From positions 256,001 through 320,000 of the forward strand of contig CAXXVO010000007.1 in assembly GCA_963422645.2 (NCBI GenBank): a stretch of DNA of 64,000 nt, written 5' to 3'. This stretch comes from Alphaproteobacteria bacterium. Lineage in GTDB: Bacteria > Pseudomonadota > Alphaproteobacteria > UBA828. The translations under genes and the position numbers were made by a program. The notes under the pieces were generated by a model that was not told the origin of the DNA, did not search any database, and saw only the letters and a program-made list of their open reading frames with translations. Positions within the stretch are counted from its first letter, which is position 1. Every line of letters starts with the position of its first letter. Positions 6,465-27,384 of this stretch are shown here, one piece after another.

Positions 6465-6468
6465 CACG

Positions 6469-7158: not shown

Positions 7159-7186
7159 CGGGCCAACATCGTTTGAGCTGCAGGAG

Positions 7187-7726: not shown

Positions 7727-7832
7727 GGACGATACTCCCGTCGCGGTTGGATGCAGGTGCCGGTCGGCCGCTACCGGCCGGCCGGAGCGCGCGATCGAGC
7801 GGAGCGAGCGCCCGGCGCTTGAGGGATCAAGA

Positions 7833-10959: not shown

Positions 10960-11105
10960 AGCGTTTCCGCCCTTCACGGAAACACTCTGGCTGTTTGTCG
11001 CTCACGGCAGCCGGCCTGCGGCCGGCGCTTCCGCGATGGCGCCGCTAACGCGGCGGGCCGCGGTCGCGGCCTGTCGCGCGTCCGTCAAAGACGGACGCGC
11101 TCTAG
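10956..11105. repeat. ~150-bp palindromic MITE/REP-like repeat, copy 2
   Basis: TTAGAGCG...CGCTCTAG; its ends contain the TAG stops of both convergent flanking genes. Confidence 0.88.
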
Positions 11106-11494
11106 AACTTGCGGTACGCCCCGTTGAGGTCGGCCATGGGGTGGCGGGGGGACATCTGGAACTTCACCAGCAGCTCGCGGGCGAGCATGTCGCGCTCCTG
11201 CTGGTTGTCGGGCAGCTCCAGGTCCTCTGGCACCGAGACCCAGCCGTTGATGTTGCGGTCGAACACCGCGGGCCGGCCTTCCTCGTAGCCCATGTGGACG
11301 TCTTCCAGCCAGTTCAGGTCGGTCCAGCCCATGGTATCGATGTAGCGCTTGAGGAAGGGCGTCAGCCGCTCGTAATCGGGCACCAGGTTCACATCGTAGC
11401 GATAGCCGATGTGCTGGCCGATCTCCTTCTCGCGCTCGCTGTCGAGGCCGCTCTGGCTCAGGTAGTAGTCGACGTCGCCGGTCTTGTCGCTCAT
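11102..11494 (-). CDS. Hypothetical 130-aa protein, last gene of the methylamine-type operon
   Basis: ATG 11494 after GGAG; strongly host-like codon usage (MSDKTGDVDYYLSQ...GAYRKF); 23 bp downstream of the mgsC-like stop. Confidence 0.75.
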   Translation of the reverse strand: MSDKTGDVDYYLSQSGLDSEREKEIGQHIGYRYDVNLVPDYERLTPFLKRYIDTMGWTDLNWLEDVHMGYEEGRPAVFDRNINGWVSVPEDLELPDNQQERDMLARELLVKFQMSPRHPMADLNGAYRKF

Positions 11495-11517
11495 GGCGCT
11501 TCTCCGGTCCTGATCGC

Positions 11518-12885
11518 TTAGTAGCGGTTCATGTCGGGGCGGCCGACGGTGTGCTGGGAGCCTGCGAGCGGCACCTGGGCCATGGCCGAAGCCTCCATGG
11601 TGAGCGCGGCGAGGTCCTCGGGCTCCAGGCTGTGCACGTCGGTCTTGCCGCAGGCGCGCGCCATCATCTGGCATTCCAGCGTCAGCGTGTGGAGGAAGTT
11701 GTAGACCCGCTCCGCCGCCTCGTCCGGGTCGAGCCGCTTGCGCAGCTCCGGGTCCTGGGTGGCGACGCCCACGGGGCAGCGCCCGGTATGGCAGTGATAG
11801 CAGTAGCCGGCCTCGACCCCGATCTCGGACTCGTAGTCGGCTTCCGGGATGTCCTTGTTGCAGTTGAGCGCCATCATCACCGAATGCCCGATGGCGACCG
11901 CGTCGGCACCCAGCGCGAGCGCCTTGGCGATGTCGCCGCCGTTGCGGACGCCGCCGGCGTAGACGAGGCTGATGCTGCCGGTGGCGCCGAGGTCGTCGAG
12001 GGCCTTCCGAGCCTGGCGGATCGCCGCGATGCCGGGCACGCCGGTCTCCTCGGTCGCGAGGTGGGGGCCGGCGCCGGTGGAGCCCTCCATCCCGTCGATG
12101 TAGATGCTGTCCGGGCCGGTCTTGATCGCCATGCGCACGTCGTCGTAGACGCGGGCGGCGCCGAGCTTGAGCTGAATCGGGATCTCGGCGTTGGTGGCCT
12201 CGCGGATCTCGTTGATCTTGAGGGCGAGGTCGTCGGGCCCGAGCCAGTCGGGATGGCGCGCGGGCGAGCGCTGGTCGATGCCGGCGGGCAGCGAGCGCAT
12301 CTCAGCCACCTGGTCGGTGACCTTCTGCCCCATCAGGTGGCCGCCGAGCCCGACCTTGCAGCCTTGGCCGATGAAGAACTCGCAGGCATCCGCCAGCCTC
12401 AGGTGGTGGGGGTTGAAGCCGTAGCGGGACTGGATGCACTGGTAGAGCCACTTCTCCGAATAGCGGCGCTCGTCAGGGATCATGCCGCCTTCGCCGGAGC
12501 AGGTGGCGGTGCCGGCCATGGTGGCGCCGCGGGCGAGCGCGGTCTTGGCCTCGTAGGAGAGCGCGCCGAAGCTCATGCCGGTGACGTAGACGGGGATGTC
12601 GAGCACCAACGGGCGCTTGGCCTTGGGCCCGATCACCGTGGTGGTCGTGCACTTCTCGCGGTAGCCCTCGATGACGAAGCGGGTGAGCGTGCCCGGCAGG
12701 AAGGTGAGGTCGTCGAAGGTCGGGATGTTCTTGAAGAGCGAGAAGCCCCGCATCCGATAGCGGCCGAGCTCCGCCTTGATGTGGATGTCGTCGATCACCT
12801 CCGGCGAAAAGATACTGCTCCGCCCCAGGATGTGACGGTTGCGGCTGGGCCGGTTGGCGACGGCTTCGCGTCTGTCGCTGGCCAT
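11518..12885 (-). CDS. mgsC: FMN-binding glutamate synthase-like subunit (N-methylglutamate synthase C / GlxD)
   Basis: GMSFGALS, SGEGGM, GQGCKVGLGGHL, SPARHPDW, CYHCHTGRCPVGVATQDP; follows GXGXG and GATase-II genes. Confidence 0.85.
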   Translation of the reverse strand: MASDRREAVANRPSRNRHILGRSSIFSPEVIDDIHIKAELGRYRMRGFSLFKNIPTFDDLTFLPGTLTRFVIEGYREKCTTTTVIGPKAKRPLVLDIPVYVTGMSFGALSYEAKTALARGATMAGTATCSGEGGMIPDERRYSEKWLYQCIQSRYGFNPHHLRLADACEFFIGQGCKVGLGGHLMGQKVTDQVAEMRSLPAGIDQRSPARHPDWLGPDDLALKINEIREATNAEIPIQLKLGAARVYDDVRMAIKTGPDSIYIDGMEGSTGAGPHLATEETGVPGIAAIRQARKALDDLGATGSISLVYAGGVRNGGDIAKALALGADAVAIGHSVMMALNCNKDIPEADYESEIGVEAGYCYHCHTGRCPVGVATQDPELRKRLDPDEAAERVYNFLHTLTLECQMMARACGKTDVHSLEPEDLAALTMEASAMAQVPLAGSQHTVGRPDMNRY

Positions 12886-12923
12886 GACGGGCTCCTTACT
12901 GGGTCGCGAGAGGCCGCGCTCGC

Positions 12924-13775
12924 TCAGAGCGCGATCTTCTTCTCGGTCGGCTCGAGGTTGTCGTAGTTCCAAAGCTGCTTGCCAGCCACGATCTTGGTCA
13001 GGTTCGCGACGCCCTTGGGCGCCTCCATCCCATAGGTCGCGAGCTTCCTCTCGAGCCAGCGCGCCTCGACGTCGGTGATCTCGCCGGGCACGGCATCGAC
13101 GCCGAGGGAAGCGATGGTGCCGCCCACGAAGATCGTGCCGTCATAGAGCGAATCCCCGAGGTTGGGGCCCGCGTCGCCGAGGATGACGATACGCCCGCGC
13201 TGCATCATGAAGCCGGTGAAGGCGCCGGCGCGGCCGCCGATGATGATGGTGCCGCCCTTCATGTCGATACCGGTGCGGGAGCCGACATCGCCCTTGCAGA
13301 CGAGATCGCCGCCCCGCAGCGCGGCGCCGAAGGTGGATCCCGCGTTCTTCTCGATCACCACGACGCCTGCCATCATGTTCTCGGCGCAGGACCAGCCGAC
13401 GCGGCCCTTGATGTGGACGTTGGGGCCGTCGATCAGGCCGCAGCCGAAGTAGCCGAGGCTGCCCTCGAAATCGAGCTTGAGGCGGTTGAGGATGCCGACG
13501 CCGAGGGAGTGCTTGGCCAGCGGATTCTGCACCACGATGTGGCCGTAGCCCTCTTCCATCAGCTCACGGATGCGGAGATTGAGGGCGGGCCCCTCCATCT
13601 CCGCCGCGTCGATCGTCGCCTTCTTGGTGAAATCGACGTCGAAGCCTTCGGGATAGGTGTAGTTGTCGCCTTCCTCCGGGTAGAAGAAGACCTGCTGGGT
13701 GCGGCCGGCGAGCTGCTCCGCGTGCAGCCCCATGTCATGGGACTTGTGCCGGTCGGCAGGGCTCAGTTCTGCCAT
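12924..13775 (-). CDS. mgsB: GXGXG (GltB C-terminal-like) subunit (N-methylglutamate synthase B / GlxC)
   Basis: HSLGVG, GSLGYFGCG, AENMMAG, GSRTGIDMKGGTIIIGG beta-helix repeats. Confidence 0.85.
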   Translation of the reverse strand: MAELSPADRHKSHDMGLHAEQLAGRTQQVFFYPEEGDNYTYPEGFDVDFTKKATIDAAEMEGPALNLRIRELMEEGYGHIVVQNPLAKHSLGVGILNRLKLDFEGSLGYFGCGLIDGPNVHIKGRVGWSCAENMMAGVVVIEKNAGSTFGAALRGGDLVCKGDVGSRTGIDMKGGTIIIGGRAGAFTGFMMQRGRIVILGDAGPNLGDSLYDGTIFVGGTIASLGVDAVPGEITDVEARWLERKLATYGMEAPKGVANLTKIVAGKQLWNYDNLEPTEKKIAL

Positions 13776-14719
13776 ACCATGACCTCCCCTTCGTAGGGAT
13801 CCCAGGTGTCGATCTCGTCGGGCATGATGCCGCGGATCGCGACCTCCTCGGAGGCGAGGCCGACGAAATCGTCGCTTTCGTAGAGCACCATGGGCTTGGC
13901 CGCCATCGTGTCCTTGGCCATGCCCAGGCTGTCCGCCGTCGCCACCAGATAGGTGAAGACGCCGTCAAGCTCGCCCACCGAACGATCCATCGCGTCCTTG
14001 AGCGCGTCGCCCCGTTCGATGCGGTCGGCGAGGTAGACGGCGATCAGCTCCGAATCGCAGTTCGACATGAAGCGATGGCCCCGGTGCTCCAGCGCCCGGC
14101 GGAACTTCCAGTAGTTGGTGAGCTGACCGTTGTGGACCACGGCGACGTCGTTGAAGGGATAGGCCCAGTAGGGGTGGGCCGAGCGGATGTCGACGTCCGA
14201 TTCCGTCGCCATCCGGGTGTGGCCGATGGCGTGGGTGCCCTGGAAGCCGGCGAGGCTGTACTGCTCACTCACGATGCCGGCGTCGCCCAGGTCCTTGATC
14301 AGCTCCAGCGCGCGGCCGAGGGAGAGAATCTCCGCACCTTCGACATCTTCGATATAGTCGGCGAAGCGCTTGAGCCGCTGCTGGCCGCCGTCGTCGCCAG
14401 CGGGGAAGCGCAGGCCGTAGCGGAACGCATACTCGGTTGCCGCTTCCTCGCCGACGATCTCGACATCCATGCTGCGGATGCGCGAATCGACCTCGGCCTT
14501 GCGGTCCTTGATCTGCTGATGGATTTCGAAGCCTTTGCCGATGTCCTCCTGTTCCGCCACCTTGAAGCGCATCACGAGGTCGCTCTCGACCGGAATGCCG
14601 TAGATGGCGAAGCCGGTGGAATCCGGCCCGCGGTGCTTGAGCGCCTGGAGCATCGTGGTCATCTCCGCCCCGATGTCGCCGCTCGATCCGCGATGGATCA
14701 GTCCTGCTATCCCGCACAT
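13763..14719 (-). CDS. mgsA: Class II glutamine amidotransferase subunit (N-methylglutamate synthase A / GlxB)
   Basis: True start MCGIAG (Ntn Cys2) at 14719; HRGPDSTG, IGHTRMATES, AHPY, VHNGQLTN, CDSE. Confidence 0.87.
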   Translation of the reverse strand: MCGIAGLIHRGSSGDIGAEMTTMLQALKHRGPDSTGFAIYGIPVESDLVMRFKVAEQEDIGKGFEIHQQIKDRKAEVDSRIRSMDVEIVGEEAATEYAFRYGLRFPAGDDGGQQRLKRFADYIEDVEGAEILSLGRALELIKDLGDAGIVSEQYSLAGFQGTHAIGHTRMATESDVDIRSAHPYWAYPFNDVAVVHNGQLTNYWKFRRALEHRGHRFMSNCDSELIAVYLADRIERGDALKDAMDRSVGELDGVFTYLVATADSLGMAKDTMAAKPMVLYESDDFVGLASEEVAIRGIMPDEIDTWDPYEGEVMVWQN

Positions 14720-14742
14720 GGGCGCCTCGTCTTTCCAATTCG

Positions 14743-16212
14743 TTAGGGCAGGCAGTCGAGATAGGTCTCGACATCCCACTCGGTGACCGTGGACATGAAG
14801 CGCTCCCACTCGTCGCGCTTGTAGTGCAAGAAGACGCGGAGCATCTCGTCCGGCAGCGCGGACTTGATCACCTCGTCGCGCTCCAGCGCGTCGAGCGCGT
14901 CGCCCAGGGACATCGGCAACTTCTTCACCAGCTTGCCGGCCTCCATGGCCTGGTAGATGTTGCGCTCCTCTGGCTCGCCGGGGTCGAGGTCCCGCGAAAT
15001 GCCGTCGTCGAAGGCCTTGAGAATCGCGCTGGCCATCAGGTAGGGATTGACCATCGAATCCACCGAGCGGTATTCGAAACGGCCCGGCGCCGAGACACGC
15101 AGGCCGCAGGTCCGGTTCTGGTAACCCCAGTCGGCGAAAACCGGCGCCCAGAAGCCGGTGTCCCAGAGACGCCGGTACGAGTTGACCGTGGACGAGCCGA
15201 GGGCCGTGAGCGCGTCGAGATGCTCCATCACGCCGCCAATGCACTTGAGTCCGACCGGGCCAGGCTTGTGGGCGTCGATCGCGGGGTCCGGCATGAACAG
15301 GTTTTCGCCACCCTTCCAATAGCTGAAGGTGTCGTCCATGCCGGCGATCGGGTCCTGATGCAGCGTGTTGACTTGCTGCGCGCCGCCGCTCCAGAGCGAG
15401 ACGTTGTGATGGCAACCGCTCGCCGAGACCCCCATGAAGGGCTTCGACATGAAGCAGGCGATAACGCCGTGCTCGCGCGCGACCTGCGCGCAGATCTGAC
15501 GATAGGTGGTGAGCCGGTCGGCGGTTCTGAGCGCATCGTCGAAGTTGAAGTTGAGTTCCAGCTGGCCGGGCGCGTCCTCATGGTCGCCCTGGATCATGTC
15601 GAGCCCCATCGCCTGGGAATACTCGATCACCCGCATGAAGATCGGCCGGAGCTCCTCGAACTGGTCGATGTGGTAGCAGTTGGGCTTGGTCACGCCGCCG
15701 TCGGTCCCGCCGTCCGCGCCGCGCTTGAGCCACATCATCTCGGGCTCGGTTCCGTGGCGCATCTGCATCCCGTGCTTGGCCTGAAACTCGTCGTGCGCGA
15801 TCCGCAGGTTGCCTCGGCAGTCCGAGGTCAGATGGCCGCCCGGATTCTCACGCTCCTCCCGGTTGCGGAAGCAGGTGCAGAAGACGCGCGCGACGCGCTT
15901 GTCCCAGGGCAGCTGGGCGAAGGTCTCGGGGTCGGGGATGCCGACCAGTTCCGACGCTTCCGGCCCGTAGCCGATGTAGTTGGAGTGGCGGTCGGTGAAG
16001 AGGTTGGCGGTCGAGCCGTAGACCAGCTGGAAGCCGCGCGCGGCGATCTGTTCCCAGTGATCGGCCGGGATGCCCTTGCCAACGATCCGCCCGGTGACGG
16101 AGACGAACTGATAGTAGATGTAGGTCACGCCGAGCTCGTCGATCTTGGCGCGCACCTGCCGCACCAGCTCTTCGCGACCCTCCCGGTTCACATGGGCTTC
16201 AAGATCGGTCAT
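14743..16212 (-). CDS. gmaS: Glutamine synthetase-like ligase, probable gamma-glutamylmethylamide synthetase
   Basis: GS motifs GTEPE, DHEDAPGQLELN, FMSKP..G.SASGCH, NSYRRL, QNRT, RFEYRSVD..NPYL; GmaS role inferred from mgsABC context. Confidence 0.72.
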   Translation of the reverse strand: MTDLEAHVNREGREELVRQVRAKIDELGVTYIYYQFVSVTGRIVGKGIPADHWEQIAARGFQLVYGSTANLFTDRHSNYIGYGPEASELVGIPDPETFAQLPWDKRVARVFCTCFRNREERENPGGHLTSDCRGNLRIAHDEFQAKHGMQMRHGTEPEMMWLKRGADGGTDGGVTKPNCYHIDQFEELRPIFMRVIEYSQAMGLDMIQGDHEDAPGQLELNFNFDDALRTADRLTTYRQICAQVAREHGVIACFMSKPFMGVSASGCHHNVSLWSGGAQQVNTLHQDPIAGMDDTFSYWKGGENLFMPDPAIDAHKPGPVGLKCIGGVMEHLDALTALGSSTVNSYRRLWDTGFWAPVFADWGYQNRTCGLRVSAPGRFEYRSVDSMVNPYLMASAILKAFDDGISRDLDPGEPEERNIYQAMEAGKLVKKLPMSLGDALDALERDEVIKSALPDEMLRVFLHYKRDEWERFMSTVTEWDVETYLDCLP

Positions 16213-16245
16213 CTCCGGTTCCTCCCTGGCAATCGGCCGGTCTCG

Positions 16246-17589
16246 TCAGCTCCACGGGAAGGGGCTGTTGGAGACCGGGTGAAGGCGGCCCTCCGCAAAG
16301 CGTGAGAAGCGGAACGGCGCGAGCAGCGCACTCTCGCGGCCCATCAGCTCGTCCGCAACCAGCTTGCCGACGGCGAGCATCTTGTAGCCGTGGTTCGAGT
16401 CGGCGATCACGTAGCAGTTTTCGCGGAAGCGATCGAAGACGGGGAAGCTGTCGGCGGCAAAGGCGCCGATTCCGCCGGACGGCTCATCGAGCCAGCGGCC
16501 GATCTGGCCCTTGTAGCGGCCCTGGCAGAAGGCGAGCGCCGAGCACCACATCTCCCTGAACGCCTCGTCGACGACGAATTCCGGCGATTCCGGCCCGTAG
16601 GGATCGATCGCGACGTCGGGTACCGCAGTCTCCACCTTGTAGGGGGCGGCACCGCCCTGGACGCCGCCGAAGTTGAAGTCCGGCTTGTAGTAGATACCCC
16701 ACATCTCGTCTGTGATGAGCCTGCCGTCCACGTCGGAATAGAGCGGCTCGTCGGAATCGACGTGGATCACCGGCGGCATCGAGCCGTCGTCCGCCATGCC
16801 GTAGGAGGGCTCGACGGCGATCGTCCCTTCCTGGAGGCACCAGAAGCGCCACATCGCAACGTCGCGGTGCACCCTGCCTTCCAGATCCTTCACGTCGATG
16901 CGATCCGGCAAGTCGAGCATGTCCCAGATGCGCGGCACCCAGGGCCCGACCGCGACGATGACCTGGTCGACGCCGATGGAACCCTGATCGGTCTCGACCG
17001 ACGTCACCGCCTTGGAGTTGGCGCCGAAGCCGAAGCCCTTGACCTCGACCCCGGTGAGGATGCGCACGCCGGCACCCCTCGCCTTGTCCGCAAGCCCGTG
17101 GATGGAGGCCTTGTTGTGCGCGTATCCGCCCTTTTTCTCGTGCAGGACGGAGGTAACGCCCGGCGCCTGCCAGTCACTGAAGAGGCCCTGCATGTAGCGC
17201 GCACACTCGGCCTCGCCCTCGATGAACTCGGACTCGTAGCCGATCGCCCGCTGCTGATCGGCGATCTCGGCGATCTGGCTGCGCATGCTCTCGGGGCTGA
17301 TCTGCATATAGCCCACGGGATGGTAGTGGTAGGCCTCGGGGTCGCTCTCCCACTCCTCCACGCAGGCCGCCATCAGCTCGCGCATCGCCGGCTGATAGTA
17401 GTTGTTGCGGACCACGCCGCAGGCAATGCCCGAGGCGCCGGCGGCGATGTCGGTCTTGTCCACCACCAGAATGTCGGCAGCGGCGCCGTTGCCCTTTGCC
17501 TTGAGAGCGGATGCGAGATGATAGGCGGTGGCGAGGCCGTGGATTCCGGCCCCGATGATCAGATACTTGACGTGACCCGGAAGCGCCAT
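16246..17589 (-). CDS. FAD-dependent oxidoreductase, DAO / sarcosine oxidase beta-like (MgdA-like)
   Basis: IIGAGIHG dinucleotide motif, GASGIACGVVRNNY, VAVGPW, SNHGYKM; first gene of the operon. Confidence 0.8.
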   Translation of the reverse strand: MALPGHVKYLIIGAGIHGLATAYHLASALKAKGNGAAADILVVDKTDIAAGASGIACGVVRNNYYQPAMRELMAACVEEWESDPEAYHYHPVGYMQISPESMRSQIAEIADQQRAIGYESEFIEGEAECARYMQGLFSDWQAPGVTSVLHEKKGGYAHNKASIHGLADKARGAGVRILTGVEVKGFGFGANSKAVTSVETDQGSIGVDQVIVAVGPWVPRIWDMLDLPDRIDVKDLEGRVHRDVAMWRFWCLQEGTIAVEPSYGMADDGSMPPVIHVDSDEPLYSDVDGRLITDEMWGIYYKPDFNFGGVQGGAAPYKVETAVPDVAIDPYGPESPEFVVDEAFREMWCSALAFCQGRYKGQIGRWLDEPSGGIGAFAADSFPVFDRFRENCYVIADSNHGYKMLAVGKLVADELMGRESALLAPFRFSRFAEGRLHPVSNSPFPWS

Positions 17590-17662
17590 CTGCCCTCTCT
17601 CCTGGCGTCGCTCGGCCCTTGTTCGGGGGCGGACTCAAGCCGGGAGGTCCACATTTGTCAAG

Positions 17663-17738
17663 CCAATTGTGGCCCAATCGGAACGACCAATTATGAACCA
17701 ATATGAATGAATGGTTGTAAGATTGGTCAAAATTGATT
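17663..17738. promoter_or_regulatory. AT-rich divergent promoter with three CAATT..CCAAT putative GntR/FadR operators
   Basis: CCAATTGTGGCCCAAT, CCAATTATGAACCAAT and reverse-strand TCAATTTTGACCAAT between divergent genes. Confidence 0.55.
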
Positions 17739-17844
17739 AAAGCAAAGAGGCCCGCATACGGTCTGCGCCGTGACTTACGGCGTTTTGGGAGGCGACGGGG
17801 GCACGGACCGGCGGGCGGCGCGCAACAAAAAATGGGCGGGCGCC

Positions 17845-18564
17845 ATGGCGATCGAGGGCACACAGGTCGGTAACCAGAACGGTGGAATTCCGAGGCCGGC
17901 CGATTCGGCGGCCGATGTGATCGCGGCGCAGCTCTCGCGGCAAATCCTCGACGGGTCGCTCGCGATGGGCGACCGGCTGCCGCCGGAACGCAGTCTCGCC
18001 GAATCCTTCTCGGCCTCGCGCGGCACGGTGCGCGAGGCCCTGCGCTCGCTCTCGGCGCGCGGCCTGGTGGCGCGCCGGGTGGGCAGCGGCACCTTCGTCA
18101 TCTACGAGCCCGACGCCGGCGAGACCGATGTCTCCGAGATCACCTCGCCGCTGGAGCTGGTCGAGGTCCGCGCCGCCGTCGAGCCGCAGATGGCCCGGCT
18201 CGCGGTGCGCAACGCTACGGCGCGCGACATGGCCGCGCTGCAGCGTGCGGTCGCCGAGATGGAAGGGGTGCAGGACGCCGAGGGCTTTTCACTGGCCGAC
18301 GAGATGTTTCACCTGAGGCTGGCCGAGGCCACCCACAATCCCCTGATCGTCGAGATCTATCACCGGATCAACCACGTCCGAGCCCACCAGCAATGGGACT
18401 CGATCAAGAACAAGATCCTGACCCCGGAGCAGATCAGCGCCTACAACGCCGAGCACCGTGCGCTGCTCGCGGCGCTCTCCCGCCGCGATGCGGATCGCGC
18501 CGTCGAAGTGATCTCCCGTCACATGGACCGCGCCCGCGCCGACCTGCTGACCAGCGCCGCCTGA
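17845..18564 (+). CDS. GntR/FadR family transcriptional regulator
   Basis: wHTH GDRLPPERSLAESFSASRGTVREAL...GSGTFV plus FCD domain (D..FH..LAEATHN, EH). Confidence 0.93.
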   Translation: MAIEGTQVGNQNGGIPRPADSAADVIAAQLSRQILDGSLAMGDRLPPERSLAESFSASRGTVREALRSLSARGLVARRVGSGTFVIYEPDAGETDVSEITSPLELVEVRAAVEPQMARLAVRNATARDMAALQRAVAEMEGVQDAEGFSLADEMFHLRLAEATHNPLIVEIYHRINHVRAHQQWDSIKNKILTPEQISAYNAEHRALLAALSRRDADRAVEVISRHMDRARADLLTSAA

Positions 18565-18759
18565 ATCGACCGCTCCGCGAGGGGCGAATCTCCGCTCTCC
18601 GCGAATTCGGGGTGAGGCAGCGCCCCGATTGTGCTTAGATTGTCGTGATCGTCGCCTCCGCAATCCTGCGGAGAGCGGCCGGCGCGTCACGACCGATCGA
18701 TGCCGCCTTCGCGGGGCTGGACGCGGGCCTCGGCGCGCGGCGCCACAGGGGAGAAGACC

Positions 18760-19953
18760 ATGAACGAGGACAAACTTCTCAAGCAGATGATGAAGCGCGA
18801 CCCGGTGCGCGGCGCCTCCGCCACCAGGCGTCAGGTGCTTCAGGGTATCGGCGCGGGCGCGCTCGCGCTGGGTGCGGGCAGCGCCCTCGCGGGCCGGGCC
18901 CGAGCCGCTGACGAACTGACGATGCTGACGTGGGACGGCTACGTGGACCCGCGCGTGCTCGACGGCTTCACCGACCAGTACGACACGGGTATCAAGTACG
19001 AGCTGCACACCTCGGACCCGGACTCGGTCAACAAGCTCCGCGCCGGCGAGACCGCGATCTGGGACATCATCAACCTAAACAACCCGTGGGCGCGTGAGAT
19101 GATGTGGCCGGAGGGGCTCATCGTCGAGCTCGACCGGGCCCGTTTCGAGCCCTACTTCGATGCGATGCTGCCGATGTTCAAACCGCCCTACAAGTGGGCG
19201 ATGAGCCTCGACAACGAGCATCTGCTGGGGGTGTGCCAGCGGGTCGACACCTTCGACTTCGTGGTCAACACCGACGTCGTCTCGGCCGACATGGCGAAGG
19301 ACGAAGGCTGGGATCTCTTCAACAATCCCGACATGGCCGGCCGCTACGGCATCCTCGCCTACGACAACTGGAACATCATGCACATCTGCATGGCCGCCGG
19401 CCTGCACCCCTTCAAGGAGAAGACCGACGACCAGGTCGCGACCTTCGAGGAAGCCGCGCGGCGGCTCATCAACGGCGCGAAGATGGTCTCGGACGACTTC
19501 GTCGCGGTGAACCTCGCCGTGGTCAACGGCGAGATCGACTTGTACTTCGGCGGCGGCACCTACTCGATCTCGGCGGCGCGCCTCGACGGGCTCACCAACC
19601 TCTATCACGTGGTGCCGAAGAGCGGGCCTGCCGACGGCAAGGGCGGGATCAACTGGATCGAGCTCAGCTCGGTGGTCAACAATCCCGACCTCCACCCGAA
19701 GGCCTTCGACTGGATGGAATACATCCTCCAGCCCGACACCTCCTACGCGGTGGCGACCGCCGGCGGCTTCCTGCTCCCCGTGGGGCAGATGGCGCAGCCG
19801 GAGCTGCTCGACAAGTTCTCGGCGGAAGAGCTCGACTCCTTCCAGTGGGACGAGTTCGACTACCGCATCTCGCACTCCGTCGAGTACGACGTGGTGCCGG
19901 AATACAACCGGCTCTACGACATCTACACGGCGGCGCGCCGCGAGAAGACGTAA
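18760..19953 (+). CDS. PotD/PotF-type ABC substrate-binding protein, Tat-exported
   Basis: Twin-Arg TRRQVL signal, LTWDGYVD motif; upstream of ATPase and two permeases. Confidence 0.85.
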   Translation: MNEDKLLKQMMKRDPVRGASATRRQVLQGIGAGALALGAGSALAGRARAADELTMLTWDGYVDPRVLDGFTDQYDTGIKYELHTSDPDSVNKLRAGETAIWDIINLNNPWAREMMWPEGLIVELDRARFEPYFDAMLPMFKPPYKWAMSLDNEHLLGVCQRVDTFDFVVNTDVVSADMAKDEGWDLFNNPDMAGRYGILAYDNWNIMHICMAAGLHPFKEKTDDQVATFEEAARRLINGAKMVSDDFVAVNLAVVNGEIDLYFGGGTYSISAARLDGLTNLYHVVPKSGPADGKGGINWIELSSVVNNPDLHPKAFDWMEYILQPDTSYAVATAGGFLLPVGQMAQPELLDKFSAEELDSFQWDEFDYRISHSVEYDVVPEYNRLYDIYTAARREKT

Positions 19954-19971
19954 ATCCGGCCGGATGAAGTG

Positions 19972-20002
19972 GGGGCGCGCGGCGACCGAAGCGGCGCGCC
20001 CC
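19972..20002 (+). other. Intercistronic GC stem-loop after the binding-protein gene
   Basis: GGGGCGCGC ... GCGCGCCCC 9-bp stem, no U-tract. Confidence 0.45.
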
Positions 20003-20076
20003 TACCATGACCGCTCGCCCGGCCGGACCCGGCCGGGCGGCGGCGCATTTGCGGAGAGAGGATCGAGACGAACGCC

Positions 20077-21144
20077 ATGGTGGATGCCGCGCCACTCCTG
20101 CGCATGGTCAACCTGACCAAGCAGTTCGGTCGACTGGTCGCCGTGAACGACGTCAGCCTCGACATCCAGGAGGGCGAGTTCTTCACCATCGTCGGGCCCT
20201 CGGGCAGCGGCAAGACCACGCTGCTGCGCATGCTGGGCGGGCTGGAGAAGCCGACGGCCGGCGACATCTTCCTCCGCGAGGAGCGGGTCAACCAGGTGCC
20301 CGCCAACCGGCGCCCGACCTGCATGGTCTTTCAGTCGCTCGCGCTCTTCAATCACAAGACGGTCGGCCAGAACATCGAATTCTCGTTGAAGATGCGGGGC
20401 GAGAGCCGCCGCGCCCGCCGCGAGCGCGGCCTCTCGCTCATGAACGTGGTCCAGCTGCCCGAGGACTACTACGACAAGTCCGTCACCAAGTGCTCGGGCG
20501 GTGAGCGCCAGCGCGTGGCGCTGGCCCGCGCCTTGGCCTCCGACCCGGAAATCCTCTTCTTCGACGAGCCGCTGTCGGCCATCGACTATCGCCTGCGCAA
20601 GCTGCTCGAGGTCGAGCTCAAGGACCTCCACCGCACCACCGGCAAGACCTTCGTCTACATCACCCACAGCCTCGAGGAGGCGATGGTGATGAGCGACCGC
20701 ATCGGGATCATGCAGGAGGGGCGCCTGATTCAGATCGGCTCGCCCAACGAGATCTATCTCCGCCCCCGCAACAAGTTCGTCTCCGAGTTCATGGGCGAGG
20801 TGAACATCTTTTCGGTGCAGGCCGGCGCGGACGGCGCCATCGACTGCCCCGCCTTCGAGCGCCGCTTCACCAGCCCGGCCCGGCCGGAGGGCTTCAGCCA
20901 GGGCTATCTCGTGATCCGGCCCGAATCGATGCGTTTCCTCAACGATCCCTCGGAGGCGGAGAACCATCTGGAGGGATCGCTCTTCAACGAGTACGCACTG
21001 GGCTCCCGGGTGCAGTACCACGTGAGCGCCGGCGGCTCGATGTTCGTCGTCGAGAAGCTCCGCGAGCAGGCCTATCGGGGCGCGCTCAACGACGACGTCA
21101 TGATCGGCTGGGACGCCAAAGACAGCGTGCTCGTGACCGACTGA
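20077..21144 (+). CDS. PotA-like ABC ATPase
   Basis: GPSGSGKTT, SGGERQRVALARAL, FFDEPLS, YITH, C-terminal TOBE-like region. Confidence 0.93.
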   Translation: MVDAAPLLRMVNLTKQFGRLVAVNDVSLDIQEGEFFTIVGPSGSGKTTLLRMLGGLEKPTAGDIFLREERVNQVPANRRPTCMVFQSLALFNHKTVGQNIEFSLKMRGESRRARRERGLSLMNVVQLPEDYYDKSVTKCSGGERQRVALARALASDPEILFFDEPLSAIDYRLRKLLEVELKDLHRTTGKTFVYITHSLEEAMVMSDRIGIMQEGRLIQIGSPNEIYLRPRNKFVSEFMGEVNIFSVQAGADGAIDCPAFERRFTSPARPEGFSQGYLVIRPESMRFLNDPSEAENHLEGSLFNEYALGSRVQYHVSAGGSMFVVEKLREQAYRGALNDDVMIGWDAKDSVLVTD

Positions 21145-22058
21145 TGGTTGACCGCGCAGAGGCGCCGACACCGTTGATCCGGCAGCCCGGGGTCGGGTCG
21201 CTCCTGCTCGGCTGGCTGGGCTCGCCCGGCGTGCTCAGTGCCACGCCCGTTCTGATCTTCTTCCTGATCGGCTTCGTCGGCCCCCTGGTGATCGTGCTGG
21301 CCTTCAGCTTCACGCCTGAGCGCACCTTCGACCTCGGCGCCGGCTTCACCACCGAGAACTACGAGCACATCTTCACGGAGAGCTACTACATCTCCTTCAT
21401 CTGGTCGTTCGCGCTGGCAGCGCTCACCGTCGCCTGCAACCTGCTGATCGGCTACCCGATCGCCTACGGCCTCGCCAAGCTCTTCGGCCGCTGGGCGGCG
21501 CCGGTCATGCTGGTGCTCGTCATTCCCCTCTTCGTCTCCGAGAACGTGCGCCTCTTCGGCTGGTATCTCTTCCTGATCAAGGGCGGCGGCATCCTCGCGG
21601 GCGGCCTCAAGGTCGCCTTCGGCATCGACACCGGCACGATGCTCTACATGCCCGGCACCACACTGATGGGCATGATCTACGTCTATCTGCCCTTCACCCT
21701 CTTCCCCATCGTGCTCGGGCTCTCCATGGTGCCGCGCGATCAGGTCGAGGCCTCGCGCGACCTCGGCGCGAGCCGCTTCCAGATTTTCCGCGAGGTCGAG
21801 CTGCCGATCGCCATGCCGGGCATCCTGATCGGCGCGCTGCTGACCTTCGTGCTGGCGGTGGGTGCAATCTCGGAGGCCAAGCTGCTCGGTGGCCAGAATA
21901 CGCCGGTGATCGCCCAGGACATCCAGCACGAGTTCACCTATGCCCAGAACTGGCCGCTGGGATCGGCGATCTCGGTGCTGGCCATCGTGGTCACCGGTAT
22001 CCTTGTGGTGGTGGTGATGCGCCGGCTCGACCTCGACCGGCTGCTGGGCCGACGATGA
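21144..22058 (+). CDS. PotB-like ABC permease
   Basis: Multiple TM helices; EASRDLGAS (EAA loop), NWPLGSA. Confidence 0.9.
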   Translation: MVDRAEAPTPLIRQPGVGSLLLGWLGSPGVLSATPVLIFFLIGFVGPLVIVLAFSFTPERTFDLGAGFTTENYEHIFTESYYISFIWSFALAALTVACNLLIGYPIAYGLAKLFGRWAAPVMLVLVIPLFVSENVRLFGWYLFLIKGGGILAGGLKVAFGIDTGTMLYMPGTTLMGMIYVYLPFTLFPIVLGLSMVPRDQVEASRDLGASRFQIFREVELPIAMPGILIGALLTFVLAVGAISEAKLLGGQNTPVIAQDIQHEFTYAQNWPLGSAISVLAIVVTGILVVVVMRRLDLDRLLGRR

Positions 22059-22103
22059 TGCGCGCGCGCACGGCGGCACTCCTCAGCGGCGGGGGGCGCT
22101 GAG

Positions 22104-22910
22104 ATGGAAAACAAGCGCTGGGTCATATGCCTGATCGCGGTCTGGACCGGCGCGATCGCGCTCTTCCTCTACATCCCGATCTTCTCGGTCATCACGAGTT
22201 CGTTCGGCAAGTCGCGTTACTTCCGCTTTCCGGTGAAGGCGTGGAGCGACAAGTGGTACGACCAGACGCTGGGCGCCAACCTGACCACGGATCTGCACCT
22301 CACCTCGTTCTATGTCGCGGGCTGCGTCGCGCTGATCGCGGTCGTGCTCGGCTTCTTCGGCGCTCTGGCTTTCGCCCGCTACAACTGGCGCGGGCGCCAG
22401 TTCTACCAGCGCCTCATCATGCTGCCGATCTTCTTCCCCCAAGCCGTGCTCGGCCTGGCGCTCCTGCTCTGGTTCACCTTTGTCGGCGTGCTGCCGAGCT
22501 GGGAGGCAGCGGTCTTCGCGCATCTGGTCTGGATCGTGCCGATCGTGACGCTGGTGATCTCGATCCAGGTCTACGGCTTCGACGCAGCCCAGGAGGAAGC
22601 CGCCTACGACCTCGGCGCCAGCCGCTGGCAGGCCTTCCGCGAGATCACGCTGCCGGCGCTCGCCCCCGGCCTCTTCTCCGGCGCACTCTTCGCCTTCCTG
22701 CTCTCCTGGGGCAACTTCCCGCTCTCGACCTTCACCACGGGCGCCGACAGCACCGTGACCGAGTGGCTCTATACCAAGATGGGTTCGGGCTACACGCCGA
22801 TGATTCCGACCATGGGTGCGCTCTCGGTGTTCGGCGCCATCGTCATTCTCTTCGGCGGCTACATGTTCCTGATCGTCCAACGGCGGCGGCGGCTGGAGCG
22901 CACCGAATAG
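22104..22910 (+). CDS. PotC-like ABC permease
   Basis: EEAAYDLGASRWQAFREITLP EAA motif; TM helices. Confidence 0.9.
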   Translation: MENKRWVICLIAVWTGAIALFLYIPIFSVITSSFGKSRYFRFPVKAWSDKWYDQTLGANLTTDLHLTSFYVAGCVALIAVVLGFFGALAFARYNWRGRQFYQRLIMLPIFFPQAVLGLALLLWFTFVGVLPSWEAAVFAHLVWIVPIVTLVISIQVYGFDAAQEEAAYDLGASRWQAFREITLPALAPGLFSGALFAFLLSWGNFPLSTFTTGADSTVTEWLYTKMGSGYTPMIPTMGALSVFGAIVILFGGYMFLIVQRRRRLERTE

Positions 22911-23013
22911 GCCCGGGCACGGCGGCAACGGGGGTGTTGTCTCTCCCGGTGCTTCGCGTTCTAATCCCAGCGCTTTTGGGAACGCGCGGGCAGCGCGCGA
23001 CAGGGAGTAGCCG

Positions 23014-23316
23014 ATGGCCTACCAAGTCACGGAAAAGGACCTTTACGTCGTCGACGAGTTCATGGCCAAGCCGATTGGCCACCACAGCCCCGACCTGCAG
23101 CGGGTGCTCAACACGCTGAGGGGTGCCGACGTGAAGGGCAAGCATTGCCTGGTCTGCACCAAGCCCGGCCGCGAATGGCGCCTGGCCCAGCTCTCCGGCG
23201 TGCGCGGCAAGCCCGTCAAGCTGCTCGACAAGACCTTCGACAATATCGACGACGCCGAGCGCTACGTCTTTCGCCTGCGCTGGAAGCAGCACACCGGCAA
23301 GGCGCTGCCTGAGTAA
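23014..23316 (+). CDS. dmfA1: N,N-dimethylformamidase small subunit-like protein
   Basis: EFMAKPIGHHSPDLQRVLNTLR...AERYVFRLRW pattern; directly upstream of the large subunit. Confidence 0.75.
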   Translation: MAYQVTEKDLYVVDEFMAKPIGHHSPDLQRVLNTLRGADVKGKHCLVCTKPGREWRLAQLSGVRGKPVKLLDKTFDNIDDAERYVFRLRWKQHTGKALPE

Positions 23317-23379
23317 CCGCCGCGCGAGCGGCCTTCACGACGATCGAGAACCCGCCGTCCGGCGGTGAGGGAGCCTTAC

Positions 23380-25632
23380 ATGAACAGAATCGCGGGCTAT
23401 GCCGACCGCGTCAGCGTGACGCCGGGGGAGACCATCAACTTCATGGTGAGTTCCGAAGCCCCCTCCTACAAGTGCGACATCGTCCGCCTCATCTGCGGTG
23501 ACGAAAACGCCGACGGACCGGGCGTGAAGGAAGAGGTCGTCCGGACCAGCGCGAGCGGCACCTACAAGGGGCGCCGGCAGGTCTGCTACGACGGCTCCTT
23601 CATGGAGGTGCCGGCGCATCCTGCGATCCAGGGGCTGGAGAGCTTCACCTTTCAGGCTTTCATCTGGCCGACGACGCCCGATCGCGGAACCCAGGCGCTG
23701 ATCGCCAACTGGCGCGACCGCGACAAGGCGGGCGCTGCCCTCATCATCACCAAGCAGGACGGCTCGCTCGCGCTCTGCCTCGGCGACGGCGAGGGCAATA
23801 TCGAGGTGACCGCCACCAACCGTCCGCTGATTCCGCACCAGTGGTACTTCGTCGCAGCCTCCTACGACGCCGGCTCCAAGCAGATCACGCTGGTGCAGCA
23901 GCCGCTTAACGACTACCCCAACGTCAACCACGCCCGCGTCCTGAAGAAGAAGTCCGCCCTGAGCGGGCCGGGCAAGCACGATGCGCCGCTCACCATGGGT
24001 GCCTACTTCAAGCGCGTCGACAAGGGCCGGACCGTCTGCAGCGGCTTCTACAACGGACGCATCGACAGCCCGCGTGTCGCCAACCGCGTGCTGACCCCGG
24101 CGGAGCTGGAGCTGGCCAAGACCCGCCCGGTGGACGGCACGCTCGCCACCTCCATCGTCGGCGCCTGGGACTTCTCCCAAGGCATCAAGACGACGACGGC
24201 CACCGATCTAAGCGCCAACGCACTGCACGGCAGCCTGGTCAACCTGCCGACCCGCGCCGTCACCGGCTGGTGCTGGGACGGCAGCGAGATGAACTGGCAG
24301 AACGCGCCGGAGCAATACGGCGCGATCCACTTCCACGAGGACGACGTCTACGACGCGCGCTGGGAGGTCGACTTCTCGCTCACCTGCCCGAAGCGGCTGA
24401 AGAGCGGCGTCTACGCCGCGAGGCTCCGCGGCGAAGGTGGCGGCGAGGATTACATCCCCTTCGCGGTGCGCGCCCCGCGCGGCGCGCCCACCGCGAAGAT
24501 CTGCTTCCTGCTGCCCACCGCGAGCTACATGGCTTACGCCAACACCAACATGTCCACCAACATGGGCGCAGCACAAATTCTCACGGGCCGGCTCACGGTG
24601 CTGAACGAGAAGAACCTGCAGCGCAGCGAGCACCGCGAGTACGGCACCTCGCTCTACGACAGCCACATCGACGGCAGCGGGATCTGCTACTCCTCCCGCC
24701 TGCGCCCCGTCCTGAACTTCCGCCCGAAGGCGCTGGAGTGGATCGGCGGCACCGAATCCACGCTCTGGCAGTTCAACGCCGACACGCATCTCACCGAATG
24801 GCTGGAGGCGAAGGGCTTCGAGTACGACGTCGTCACCGACGAGGACCTGCACTACGAGGGCCTGGCGGCGATCCAGGACTACACGGTCGTGCTCTCCGGC
24901 TCGCACCCCGAATACCACTCGAAGGCGATGTGGGATGCGATGTACGCCTACCAGCAGCGCGGCGGGCGGCTCATGTACATGGGCGCCAACGGCTGGTACT
25001 GGCGCATCGCCTACCACACCGAAGTGCCGGGCTGCATCGAGGTGCGCCGCGCCGAGGACGGCATCCGCACCTGGATCGCGCGCCCCGGCGAGTACTATCA
25101 CAGCTTCACCGGCGAGTACGGCGGCCTCTGGCGGCGCAACGGCCGGCCGCCGCAGATCATCGTCGGCACCGGCTTCACCGCTCAGGGCTTCGACATCTCG
25201 TCCCACTACGTGCGCGAGCCGGACAGCTTCAAGAAAGAGGTCGCCTGGATCTTCGAAGGCATCGGCGAGGACGAGAAGATCGGCGATTTCGGGTTGATCG
25301 GCGGCGGTGCGGCGGGGCTGGAGCTCGACCGGGCCGACCCGCTGCTGGGCACGCCGCCCAACACCTACGTGCTCGCCTCCTCCAAGGAGCACACGGATCT
25401 CTACCTCGTGGTCTGCGAAGAGCTCGACGTCAATCGGCCCAATGCCGACGGCACGCAGGACCCGCTGGTGCGCGCCGACATCGTGTTCTACGAGACCGCG
25501 AAGGGCGGCGCCGTGTTCTCCACCAGCTCGATCGCCTGGTGTGGCAGCCTCGCCCACAACGACCACGACAACAACGTCTCGCGCATGACCGAGAACGTCC
25601 TGCGCCGCTTCGCCGATCCGACCCCGTTCTGA
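23380..25632 (+). CDS. dmfA2: N,N-dimethylformamidase large subunit family protein
   Basis: GYADRVSVTPGETINFMVS, LamG-like insert, YGAIHFHEDD, PTASYMAYAN, SLYDSH.DGSG, GSHPEY, GANGWYW, AAGLELD, GAVFSTSSIAW. Confidence 0.9.
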   Translation: MNRIAGYADRVSVTPGETINFMVSSEAPSYKCDIVRLICGDENADGPGVKEEVVRTSASGTYKGRRQVCYDGSFMEVPAHPAIQGLESFTFQAFIWPTTPDRGTQALIANWRDRDKAGAALIITKQDGSLALCLGDGEGNIEVTATNRPLIPHQWYFVAASYDAGSKQITLVQQPLNDYPNVNHARVLKKKSALSGPGKHDAPLTMGAYFKRVDKGRTVCSGFYNGRIDSPRVANRVLTPAELELAKTRPVDGTLATSIVGAWDFSQGIKTTTATDLSANALHGSLVNLPTRAVTGWCWDGSEMNWQNAPEQYGAIHFHEDDVYDARWEVDFSLTCPKRLKSGVYAARLRGEGGGEDYIPFAVRAPRGAPTAKICFLLPTASYMAYANTNMSTNMGAAQILTGRLTVLNEKNLQRSEHREYGTSLYDSHIDGSGICYSSRLRPVLNFRPKALEWIGGTESTLWQFNADTHLTEWLEAKGFEYDVVTDEDLHYEGLAAIQDYTVVLSGSHPEYHSKAMWDAMYAYQQRGGRLMYMGANGWYWRIAYHTEVPGCIEVRRAEDGIRTWIARPGEYYHSFTGEYGGLWRRNGRPPQIIVGTGFTAQGFDISSHYVREPDSFKKEVAWIFEGIGEDEKIGDFGLIGGGAAGLELDRADPLLGTPPNTYVLASSKEHTDLYLVVCEELDVNRPNADGTQDPLVRADIVFYETAKGGAVFSTSSIAWCGSLAHNDHDNNVSRMTENVLRRFADPTPF

Positions 25633-25666: not shown

Positions 25667-26419
25667 ATGAGCGGCCCCGTTCTCGAGGTCGAGGCCCTCA
25701 CCAAGCGATTCGGCAAGTTCACTGCGGTCGATGCGGTGAGCTTCTCGGTCGCGCGCGGGGCAACCGCCGCCCTGCTCGGCGCCAACGGCGCCGGCAAGAC
25801 CACCACCATTGCGATGATCCTGGGCCTCCTGCTGCCGAGCACAGGCTCGGTGCGCATCTTCGGCAGCGATCTGGCGGCCGAGCGCTACGCGCTGCTGCCG
25901 CGCATGAACTTCTCCTCGCCCTACACCGACCTTCCGCACCGGCTCACGGTGCGTGAGAATCTGACCGTCTACGCCCGGCTCTACAGCCTTGACGGCGTCC
26001 GCCGGCGGATCGAGCGGATGGCCGAGATCCTCGATCTCGGCGACTTCCTCAAGCGGCCCACGGGCAAGCTCTCGGCCGGGCAACGCACCAGGGTCGCGCT
26101 CGCGAAGGCGCTGCTCAACGATCCGGAGCTCCTGCTGCTCGACGAGCCCTCGGCCTCGCTCGATCCCGATACCGCCGACTGGGTGCGGGGTGTGATCGAG
26201 CGCTACCGGGCCGAGACCGGCGCCACGATCCTGCTCGCCTCCCACAACATGGCCGAGGTCGAGCGCCTCTGCGACGACGTGTTGGTGATGGCGGGCGGGC
26301 GCATCGTCGAGAGCGGCACGCCCGAGGCCATGATCGAACGCCACGGCCGCAGCACGCTGGAAGAGGTCTTCCTCGAAATCGTGCGGGGCACCGGCAGCGT
26401 CGGGGAAGCGGCGCAATGA
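25667..26419 (+). CDS. ABC-2 type exporter ATP-binding protein
   Basis: GANGAGKTT, LSAGQ, LLLDEP, ASHNM. Confidence 0.92.
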   Translation: MSGPVLEVEALTKRFGKFTAVDAVSFSVARGATAALLGANGAGKTTTIAMILGLLLPSTGSVRIFGSDLAAERYALLPRMNFSSPYTDLPHRLTVRENLTVYARLYSLDGVRRRIERMAEILDLGDFLKRPTGKLSAGQRTRVALAKALLNDPELLLLDEPSASLDPDTADWVRGVIERYRAETGATILLASHNMAEVERLCDDVLVMAGGRIVESGTPEAMIERHGRSTLEEVFLEIVRGTGSVGEAAQ

Positions 26420-27249: not shown

Positions 27250-27384
27250 TTGGAGCGTTTCCGACTTAGACGGAAACGCTCTCGCATTTTGTCGCTCACG
27301 GCAGCCGGCCTGCGGCCTGCGCCGCAAAGCGGCGGGCCGCAGTCGCGGCCTGACGCGCGCTCGTCAGAGACGAACCCGCTCTAG
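27250..27384. repeat. Palindromic MITE/REP-like repeat, copy 3 (diverged, 135 bp)
   Basis: Shares GAGCGTTTCCG..CGGAAACGCTCT, TTGTCGCTCACGGCAGCCGGCCTGCGGCC and terminal CGCTCTAG; end contains the cobT stop. Confidence 0.85.

Follow-up and report, generated by a model that had tools for sequence, protein, structure and literature searches.

A dimethylformamidase-like amidase divergent from an N-methylglutamate-type module: a candidate amide catabolic island in an alphaproteobacterial genome

N,N-Dimethylformamide (DMF) is a synthetic solvent, yet homologues of dimethylformamidase (DMFase; EC 3.5.1.56), the enzyme that hydrolyzes it to dimethylamine and formate, are widespread. A preprint census places them in 924 of 20,762 complete genomes (10.1101/2021.03.18.435917). 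What these enzymes do naturally is the question raised by a locus in an alphaproteobacterial genome (lineage UBA828; assembly GCA_963422645.2). There, a 64,000-nucleotide stretch of contig CAXXVO010000007.1 (positions 256,001 to 320,000; the whole stretch is called the window, and coordinates are counted from its first nucleotide) carries genes for a two-subunit DMFase-like amidase (dmfA1-like and dmfA2-like), together with an ABC importer, divergent from genes resembling those of the N-methylglutamate (NMG) pathway for methylamine. The island offers a clue to the natural role of such enzymes; its importer, its regulator, and the downstream amine pathway should all recognize the native compound or its product. 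The best-supported reading, to which we give an even chance, is that the island serves to break down an amide taken up from outside, under the control of GntR, and that the amidase is coupled to amine capture through a paralogue of the NMG route.

Listing the open reading frames (ORFs) and filtering them by third-position GC gave one clean gene set for the window, to which families were assigned with Pfam and NCBIfam (Table 1). The island genes are intact ORFs with a third-position GC of 0.81 to 0.94. The first-pass annotation of this DNA had described a single divergent unit, with regulator, importer, and amidase genes on one strand and the NMG-type genes on the other, and its gene map holds: all of the named genes are present, and their families match the labels. 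Relatives were collected through DmfA2 by a scan with one genome per species, in which 550 stretches matched and 515 encoded a relative; of these, we retained the best 80, which correspond to 79 loci. Window proteins were mapped onto all loci by tblastn, all ORFs were clustered, and Pfam was run on the neighbors; the neighborhood counts given below are taken over 83 DMFase-like loci (designated by L numbers), within the fetched flanks. Two further species-level metagenome-assembled genomes (MAGs), L004 and L005, preserve the complete divergent arrangement with 86 to 100% protein identity, and it does not appear to be a chance juxtaposition.

The end that the first-pass annotation set for the unit, at dmfA2, is probably too early. 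Genes for an ABC-2 type exporter, which have only generic NCBIfam matches, begin 34 bp after dmfA2, are 91 to 93% conserved in L004 and L005, and are absent from L007; the only strong terminator-like hairpin comes after them. The exporter, which may serve in product export or in tolerance, is probably cotranscribed with the dmf genes, and the plus-strand unit very likely continues through it to that hairpin, about 1.6 kb further.

The large subunit of the amidase scores 344.5 bits on PF20254 (cutoff, 27) and aligns with the Paracoccus DMFase (parDMFase; chain 6lvb_A) over residues 9 to 753 (E = 5.4e-186). It also matches the N-acetyl-(R)-beta-phenylalanine acylase 8huy_A (E = 1.2e-162), a more distant member of the same family, whose existence means that formamides are not the only substrates of the family; nothing in the window suggests an amino acid as the product. 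In parDMFase, according to the available text of PMC7686228, the Fe(III) ligands are Y399, Y440, and E521, and H519, N547, and E657 are essential. All six catalytic residues are kept in the window protein (Y391, Y431, E516, H514, N542, and E653), and the ligand motifs picked out in the first-pass annotation were correct, with Y391 in SYMAYAN, Y431 in SLYDSH, and E516 in HPEY aligning with the three parDMFase ligands. Among 75 aligned homologues (7 of 82 rows, with extracted ORFs of less than 650 residues, were dropped), Y399, Y440, E521, and E657 are found in every row, H519 in 74, and N547 in 71. The same text describes how F693, contributed by the neighboring subunit, narrows the pocket and so restricts the size of the substrate. 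This gate position is V689 in the window protein and varies over the 75 rows (F in 27, I in 18, V in 14, A in 5, and others in 11), with Phe in L083, L084, L047, L052, L053, and L080 and no Phe in the 8huy acylase.

Taken as a single sequence, the small ORF upstream of dmfA2 has a weak match to the parDMFase small subunit, 6lvb_B (E = 0.017); with a profile of 28 homologous small ORFs, 6lvb_B is the sole match (E = 7e-15), and by this homology the ORF is a true DmfA1-type small subunit. A DmfA1-like ORF occurs in 70 of the 83 loci; the median distance from its start to the large-subunit gene downstream is about 400 bp. This is far above the 41 genomes or MAGs with small subunits that annotation based on KEGG orthology yielded in the preprint census (10.1101/2021.03.18.435917), and divergent small subunits are probably missed by annotation. 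The window genes thus resemble Paracoccus DmfA1A2 (PDB entries 6LVB and 6LVV; dmfR-dmfA1-dmfA2 on pAMI2) in the adjacent small-then-large order, the end-to-end alignment, and the catalytic residues. They differ in that the small subunit has 100 residues rather than 132, the regulator is of the GntR/FCD rather than the LuxR type, and the operon includes an ABC importer and an exporter.

A further difference is phylogenetic. In a quick LG+G4 tree of DmfA2 (81 rows; four loci with short matches were skipped and L012 was left out; L014, L038, and L062 are filled to only about 11% and L029 to 49%), the window protein falls in a 13-row clade (SH-aLRT, 100) with L004 (96% identical), L005 (93%), L010 (85%), L007 (68%), L008 (66%), and a gammaproteobacterial group, within a larger clade of 36 rows. 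The proven DMFases, from pAMI2 (L083) and Methylobacterium DM1 (L084), are 43 to 45% identical to it and lie in a separate 29-row clade (SH-aLRT, 99), where they are sister (SH-aLRT, 90) to 11 rows including two Aminobacter niigataensis loci, L046, L047, L050, L052, L053, L070, and L080. Plasmids hold relatives of the window DmfA2 in 82 records, the best 47% identical and the proven pAMI2 enzyme 44.5%, and a large protein set contains a populous DmfA2 group at 57 to 95% identity. Separately, a conserved ORF of 127 to 150 residues without a Pfam family lies directly after dmfA2 in L046, L047, L050, L052, L053, L071, L073, L074, and L080; it belongs to the clade sister to the proven DMFases, is absent from the clade of the window protein, and may be a third component.

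Divergent from the amidase operon is a module with the architecture of the NMG pathway. Three adjacent MgsABC-type subunits are present, namely, an Ntn-Cys amidotransferase, a GXGXG subunit, and a subunit with the FMN-binding glutamate synthase domain. As in the canonical GmaS-MgsABC-MgdABCD set of Paracoccus aminophilus pAMI6, a ligase of the glutamine synthetase (GS) family adjoins the class II amidotransferase and an FCD-domain regulator is adjacent, the two regulators being 37% identical (the pAMI6 protein is the one beside glnT). The available text of PMC7948447 assigns catalytic roles in RhGmaS to D177, the amine-deprotonating Asp, and E186, and places Q175, E179, and N188 in the pocket. 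The GS-like ligase keeps all five, QGDHEDAPGQLELN in the window aligning with YQNDHEDANGQFEMN of 7cql, and around D177 and E186 it has the GmaS-type GDHEDA...LELN where true GS has SHHEV. To judge from this motif, the protein would ligate an amine rather than ammonia. Its closest relatives in the sample are those of L052 (81% identical) and of L047, L053, and L080 (66 to 67%). Tandem GS pairs on plasmid p2 of Paracoccus sp. TOH and on a Ruegeria plasmid have a second member that is 52 to 55% identical to the ligase, which groups with these proteins and not with GmaS.

The module differs from the canonical set in its gene order, with the GS first, in the additional orf130, and in having one 447-residue flavoprotein of the DAO family in place of the four sarcosine oxidase-like subunits of MgdABCD. 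The best solved relatives of this flavoprotein are sarcosine oxidases (E of about 1e-7). Its own family is large and invariant in length, with at least 120 representatives, those listed being 67 to 94% identical. Three of the 120 listed homologues (67 to 71% identical) were named methylglutamate dehydrogenase subunit A by JGI, and the others have generic names; the JGI label is a lead, not a test. The available text of PMC5023230 contains nothing on single-subunit NMG dehydrogenases. Among 72,556 plasmid records, tblastn found no homologue of the flavoprotein at E < 1e-40, although 252 plasmid records have an MgsC homologue, all of them less than 60% identical to that of the window. Two candidate counterparts on pAMI6 were set aside: the 447-residue oxidoreductase beside glnT is unrelated to the DAO flavoprotein, and the APC permease of the L052 operon has no similarity to the permease beside the canonical mgsABC.

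The module recurs beside another type of DMFase-like gene. In L052, whose DmfA2 is 47% identical to that of the window, belongs to the other clade, and has the Phe gate, an orthologous operon runs divergently from the small and large subunit genes in the order GFA-DAO-GS-mgsA-mgsB-mgsC-orf130-permease. Its flavoprotein is 66% identical to that of the window, its MgsA, MgsB, and MgsC counterparts are 71, 70, and 90% identical, and the ORF after its mgsC is 66% identical to orf130 over 137 residues. The leading gene encodes a formaldehyde-activating enzyme (GFA), and the locus also has a formamidase nearby and a second DMFase-like pair. In L047, L053, and L080 (DmfA2, 43 to 47% identical), a ligase of the same GS-like clade lies between duplicated DMFase-like pairs, in tandem with another GS and accompanied by a PhyH-family dioxygenase and a class I amidotransferase (at 4920 to 9492, 4933 to 9441, and 12845 to 15768 of the respective loci); L053 adds a P450 and a short-chain dehydrogenase/reductase (SDR), and L047 adds an Amt-family transporter. 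L007 keeps the binding protein, potABC, and the small and large subunit genes, with a nonorthologous mgsA-mgsB-mgsC and GS set 3 kb downstream and two class III aminotransferases and an SDR upstream of the importer; L008 is like L007 as far as its 6-kb contig extends. Canonical GmaS with sarcosine oxidase-like subunits is found in L015 (DmfA2, 59% identical) and L070 (46%), the latter also having FolD and PurU. Overall, GS-like genes occur in the flanks of 11 of the 83 loci, in about six separate arrangements, and at least one of a GS-like gene, a class III or class IV aminotransferase, or a Cu amine oxidase occurs in 27. In broader terms, the recurring pattern is that of an amidase with an enzyme that consumes amines as its neighbor.

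The importer has the architecture of PotABCD but, judged from its scores, is not within the PotABCD equivalogs. The binding protein reaches 37.7 bits on the PotD model (cutoff, 582), PotA reaches 294.1 (482), PotB reaches 148.2 (348), and PotC reaches 124.9 (326). The binding protein carries an RRQVLQG twin-arginine signal for the twin-arginine translocation (Tat) pathway, matches 8y5h (E = 1.4e-7), and is 77% identical to that of L007. Its relatives are numerous, at 56 to 95% identity, and their sources name them PotD/PotF or spermidine/putrescine binding proteins. Orthologous importers are found on two plasmids. That of Antarctobacter pSMS3-1 (L091, 8008 to 14734; 62, 56, 48, and 56% identical) adjoins an isochorismatase-family hydrolase, an N-formylglutamate amidohydrolase, and a GS-family protein, and that of Agrobacterium pAtC58 (L092, 7524 to 15708; 49, 57, 55, and 55%) adjoins an isochorismatase-family hydrolase, a kinase, and a class III aminotransferase. 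Both have other hydrolases in place of the DMFase-like gene, which looks like nonorthologous replacement of the hydrolase around one importer type, and the context fits a hydrolyzable nitrogen compound as cargo.

Gene content, catalytic residues, subunit homology, and the recurrence of the linkage are observed; the substrate and each step of the route we infer as follows. The Tat-exported PotD/PotF-type binding protein and the PotABC-like permease would import the amide, which the Fe(III) amidase would split into an acid and a small amine. The GS-like ligase, using ATP, would trap the amine on glutamate; the MgsABC-like complex would rehydrolyze the gamma-glutamyl amide at its Ntn-Cys subunit and pass the amine to the FMN subunit, where N-alkylglutamate would be formed. 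The DAO-family flavoprotein, in the stead of MgdABCD, would then oxidize N-alkylglutamate to glutamate and an aldehyde, which would be formaldehyde if the alkyl group were methyl. The amine released would most likely be methylated (mono- or dimethylamine). A methylated amine is favored by the GFA gene of L052, the nearby formamidase, and the occurrence of the GS-like clade beside DMFase-like enzymes that have the Phe gate. Besides methylamine, the candidates include dimethylamine, ethyl- or isopropylamine, amino alcohols, and diamines.

Several observations weigh against an amide island coupled to an NMG-type route. The GS-like ligase scores 318.6 bits on TIGR03105, the GmaS equivalog, against a cutoff of 469.6, where the true GmaS proteins of L015 and L070 score 612 and 636, and it is 30 to 31% identical to canonical GmaS (the L015 and L070 proteins and P. 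aminophilus GlnT). MgsA, MgsB, and MgsC are 31, 42, and 52% identical to the P. aminophilus proteins (the model libraries that were searched contain no curated MgsABC model), and the flavoprotein is 28% identical to P. aminophilus MgdA over its N-terminal 211 residues only. No formaldehyde- or one-carbon (C1)-handling gene was found among the scanned window ORFs. The PotD-type binding protein suggests a cationic ligand rather than a small neutral formamide. No DMFase gene was found near the plasmid relatives of the GS-like ligase in the three neighborhoods inspected out of eight records (the GS-centered sample was of plasmids only, none above 53% identity). An mgsA-like gene was found in only 4 of the 83 loci and the 447-residue DAO in 4, and both the pot and the mgs genes are missing from L010, the nearest relative apart from L004 and L005. 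The association of the GS-like clade with DMFase-like genes is itself biased by ascertainment, because the loci were collected through DmfA2.

On these comparisons, the gene labeled gmaS-like encodes a paralogue of GmaS and not GmaS itself, and the MgsABC-like subunits likewise look like distant paralogues of the methylamine enzymes, so that the first-pass identification of the set with GmaS and MgsABC is not supported as it was worded. The pairing of dmf and mgs genes, which that annotation proposed to follow across genomes, is rare in the family, yet several unrelated arrangements either gained or retained it; its full form is shared with L004 and L005. Since the mgs linkage occurs in so few loci, it is therefore not generalizable as the native role of DMFase homologues, as had been suggested.

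The first-pass annotation favored an N-monomethyl amide, for example N-methylformamide, from which methylamine would be released directly into the ordinary NMG pathway. ParDMFase, according to the available text of PMC7686228, accepts formamide and N-ethylformamide and hydrolyzes N-methylformamide at a high rate. The GS and MgsABC architecture of that pathway is present in the module, the orthologous L052 operon has its GFA gene, and true GmaS adjoins DMFase-like genes in L015 and L070. However, all four downstream enzymes appear to be paralogues, to judge from the equivalog score and the low identities given above, MgdABCD is missing, Val occupies the gate, the importer belongs to the polyamine type, and the window has no C1 gene, all of which argue against simple methylamine. 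The catalytic set, the DmfA1 subunit, and the GFA gene leave part of that proposal standing, with methylamine as one candidate among several, and we consider the ordinary pathway a possible but unlikely account. We would say the same of an amine that is not methylated, such as a diamine, an amino alcohol, or a short alkylamine (ethyl or isopropyl), which would be released from an N-acyl derivative and deaminated by the GS-like, Mgs-like, and DAO set through gamma-glutamyl and N-alkylglutamate intermediates. Such an amine would suit the PotD/PotF-type importer with its Tat signal, the aminotransferases and SDR upstream of the L007 importer, the class III aminotransferase and kinase beside the Agrobacterium importer, the P450, aldehyde dehydrogenase, and class I amidotransferase genes around the nearest plasmid relatives of the GS-like ligase, and the acylase 8huy, also without the gate Phe. 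Yet the scanned window ORFs include no aldehyde dehydrogenase, class I amidotransferase, or aminotransferase, the flavoprotein has no full-length similarity to PuuB, the GS-like ligase is 26% identical to PuuA, and the GFA gene and formamidase of L052 point to C1 chemistry.

The two halves could also be unrelated neighbors, the GS/Mgs/DAO operon assimilating free environmental amines and the pot-dmf operon serving another purpose. The linkage is absent from most DMFase-like loci and from L010, the DAO family is very large and probably far more widespread than the linkage, and gntR has its own terminator-like hairpin. We nevertheless find this improbable, as the module or its GS-like core adjoins DMFase-like genes of the other clade in L052, L047, L053, and L080, the pot-dmf operon of L007 has a nonorthologous mgs/GS set as its neighbor, and L004 and L005 preserve the layout of two divergent operons about a single regulator. 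That the island is simply one for DMF degradation, of the known xenobiotic kind, seems very improbable. It has the full-length homology to DMFase, the catalytic residues, and the two-subunit layout on its side, and the 43 to 45% identity, the position outside the clade of the pAMI2 and Methylobacterium DM1 enzymes, the Val gate, and a GntR regulator and PotD-type importer instead of a LuxR-type DmfR against it.

Within the reading of an amide island coupled to amine capture, the amine could be dimethylamine. As the first-pass annotation had stated, no dimethylamine dehydrogenase or monooxygenase is in the cluster: the Dmd, Dmm, Tmm, Mau, and Mgd families were not found among the scanned window ORFs, nor were the GCV_T, SoxG, and SoxD domains. 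That annotation took this as a sign of direct methylamine release, but it can equally mean that the paralogous module itself might take dimethylamine. In this case, gamma-glutamyl-dimethylamide would be converted to N,N-dimethylglutamate, which the single flavoprotein would demethylate stepwise. We regard it as improbable that the DAO, GS-like, MgsABC-like, and orf130 genes form an undescribed NMG pathway paralogue dedicated to the amine from DMFase-family amidases, with dimethylamine as a potential amine. If true, the dimethylamine variant would be a third way of breaking down dimethylamine, one that needs neither Dmd nor DmmDABC. It would account both for the lack of dmd and dmm genes in these islands and for the presence of the GS-like clade beside Phe-gated DMFase-like genes (L047, L052, L053, and L080) in the sister clade of the proven DMFases. 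More generally, the paralogous GS/Mgs/flavoprotein module could be a new amine oxidation route relevant to the cycling of methylated amines.

Two other known systems resemble parts of the island. The tandem-GS clusters of the Paracoccus sp. TOH and Ruegeria plasmids share the GS-like ligase but have a P450, an aldehyde dehydrogenase, and a class I amidotransferase after it; the window has no second GS and has the MgsABC-like subunits and the DAO flavoprotein instead. These clusters may resemble the Ipu pathway for isopropylamine of Pseudomonas. The Puu pathway of Escherichia coli, with PotABCD, similarly combines a polyamine-type ABC importer with a GS-like ligase and a DAO-family flavoprotein. 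Assignment of the island to Puu was rejected on direct comparison with PuuA and PuuB: the ligase scores 239 bits on NF045547 against 650, similarity to PuuB is limited to the FAD motif, and the island lacks PuuC- and PuuD-type genes. The Pot scores are below their cutoffs. The open-license literature in PMC and bioRxiv yielded neither a DMFase homologue linked to a GS-like or Mgs-like module nor any gamma-glutamylation of dimethylamine. The individual parts of the island come from known families; the novelty lies in how they are combined and in the paralogous DAO-GS-Mgs-orf130 module.

Table 1. Features of the island, by position in the window
Feature	Position	Strand	Remarks
orf130	11102-11494	-	Last gene of the minus-strand operon; 130 aa; no known family
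mgsC-like FMN subunit (glutamate synthase central domain)	11518-12885	-	PF01645, 296 bits
mgsB-like GXGXG subunit	12924-13775	-	PF01493, 57 bits
mgsA-like class II (Ntn) amidotransferase subunit	13763-14656	-	GATase_6 and GATase_7; translation begins MCG
GS-like glutamate-amine ligase	14743-16212	-	Gln-synt_C, 282 bits
DAO-family flavoprotein, 447 aa	16246-17589	-	Leads the minus-strand operon; PF01266 match limited to residues 9-228
AT-rich divergent promoter region, repeated CCAAT/ATTGG boxes	17590-17769		Sequence and repeats
GntR/FCD-family regulator	17770-18564	+	PF00392 (76 bits) and PF07729 (96 bits)
Terminator-like hairpin of gntR	18607-18628	+	
PotD/PotF-type binding protein, Tat-exported	18760-19953	+	SBP_bac_8; twin-arginine signal
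potA-like	20077-21144	+	ABC_tran/TOBE_2
potB-like	21144-22058	+	BPD_transp_1
potC-like	22104-22910	+	BPD_transp_1
dmfA1-like small subunit, 100 aa	23014-23316	+	Profile match to 6lvb_B
dmfA2-like large subunit, 755 aa, LamG-like domain and DMFA2_C	23365-25632	+	PF20254
ABC-2 type exporter	ATPase 25667-26419, permease 26416-27246	+	ABC_tran and ABC2_membrane
Terminator-like hairpin closing the plus-strand operon	27252-27282	+	12-pair stem with 7 GC pairs, then a T-rich tail

Two gene starts were revised in drawing up Table 1. The true start of orf130 is M61 of a 190-residue ORF, where homology begins; the protein has no Pfam or NCBIfam family, and the ESM Atlas gave no usable match for it. The start of the mgsC-like gene is the ATG at 12885, behind an AAGGAG site, and not the TTG at 12972. 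Between the operons, the promoter region contains four direct CCAAT boxes and an inverted ATTGG, with the core conserved in L004 and L005 and the flanks variable. Upstream of the binding-protein gene (18620 to 18650), an ATTGTG-containing motif, CGATTGTGCTTAGATTG, is likewise kept in those two genomes. The boxes and the CGATTGTGCTTAGATTG motif are candidate operator sites. Of a GntR operator common to both operons, only a weak shared ATTGTG-containing motif was seen, on which we make no claim, and a sigma-70 promoter scan found 2 sites against a shuffle mean of 1.6, not above the shuffled sequences.

The G+C content of the window is about 65 to 74%, that of the island at 10 to 26 kb (0.65 to 0.675) being slightly lower than that of its flanks (0.695 to 0.74). 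No tRNA genes were found in the window as island borders. A megablast search of the island against plasmids returned 18 records, each covering at most 1% of the query inside ABC ATPase genes, and no related island. The region has mobile DNA to either side: at 397 to 5392, an IstB helper gene of the IS21 type is followed by a gene for a 1,412-residue TipJ-family phage tail host-specificity protein (201.7 bits; cutoff, 140), IS66 transposase pieces lie at 50464 to 51246 and 52802 to 53707, and an IS1595 transposase gene lies at 62341 to 63306.

Farther downstream, two MauG/MbnH-like diheme enzyme genes (41616 to 43905) precede those for arsenite oxidase. The second seems to be split, with its C-terminal part (model positions 213 to 291) in another frame at 43471 to 43905, overlapping the ORF at 42725 to 43768, which could represent a frameshift or an assembly error. 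The small and large subunit genes of the arsenite oxidase, at 43918 to 47193, score 110.1 and 418 bits, above the respective NCBIfam cutoffs of 95.65 and 359.05.

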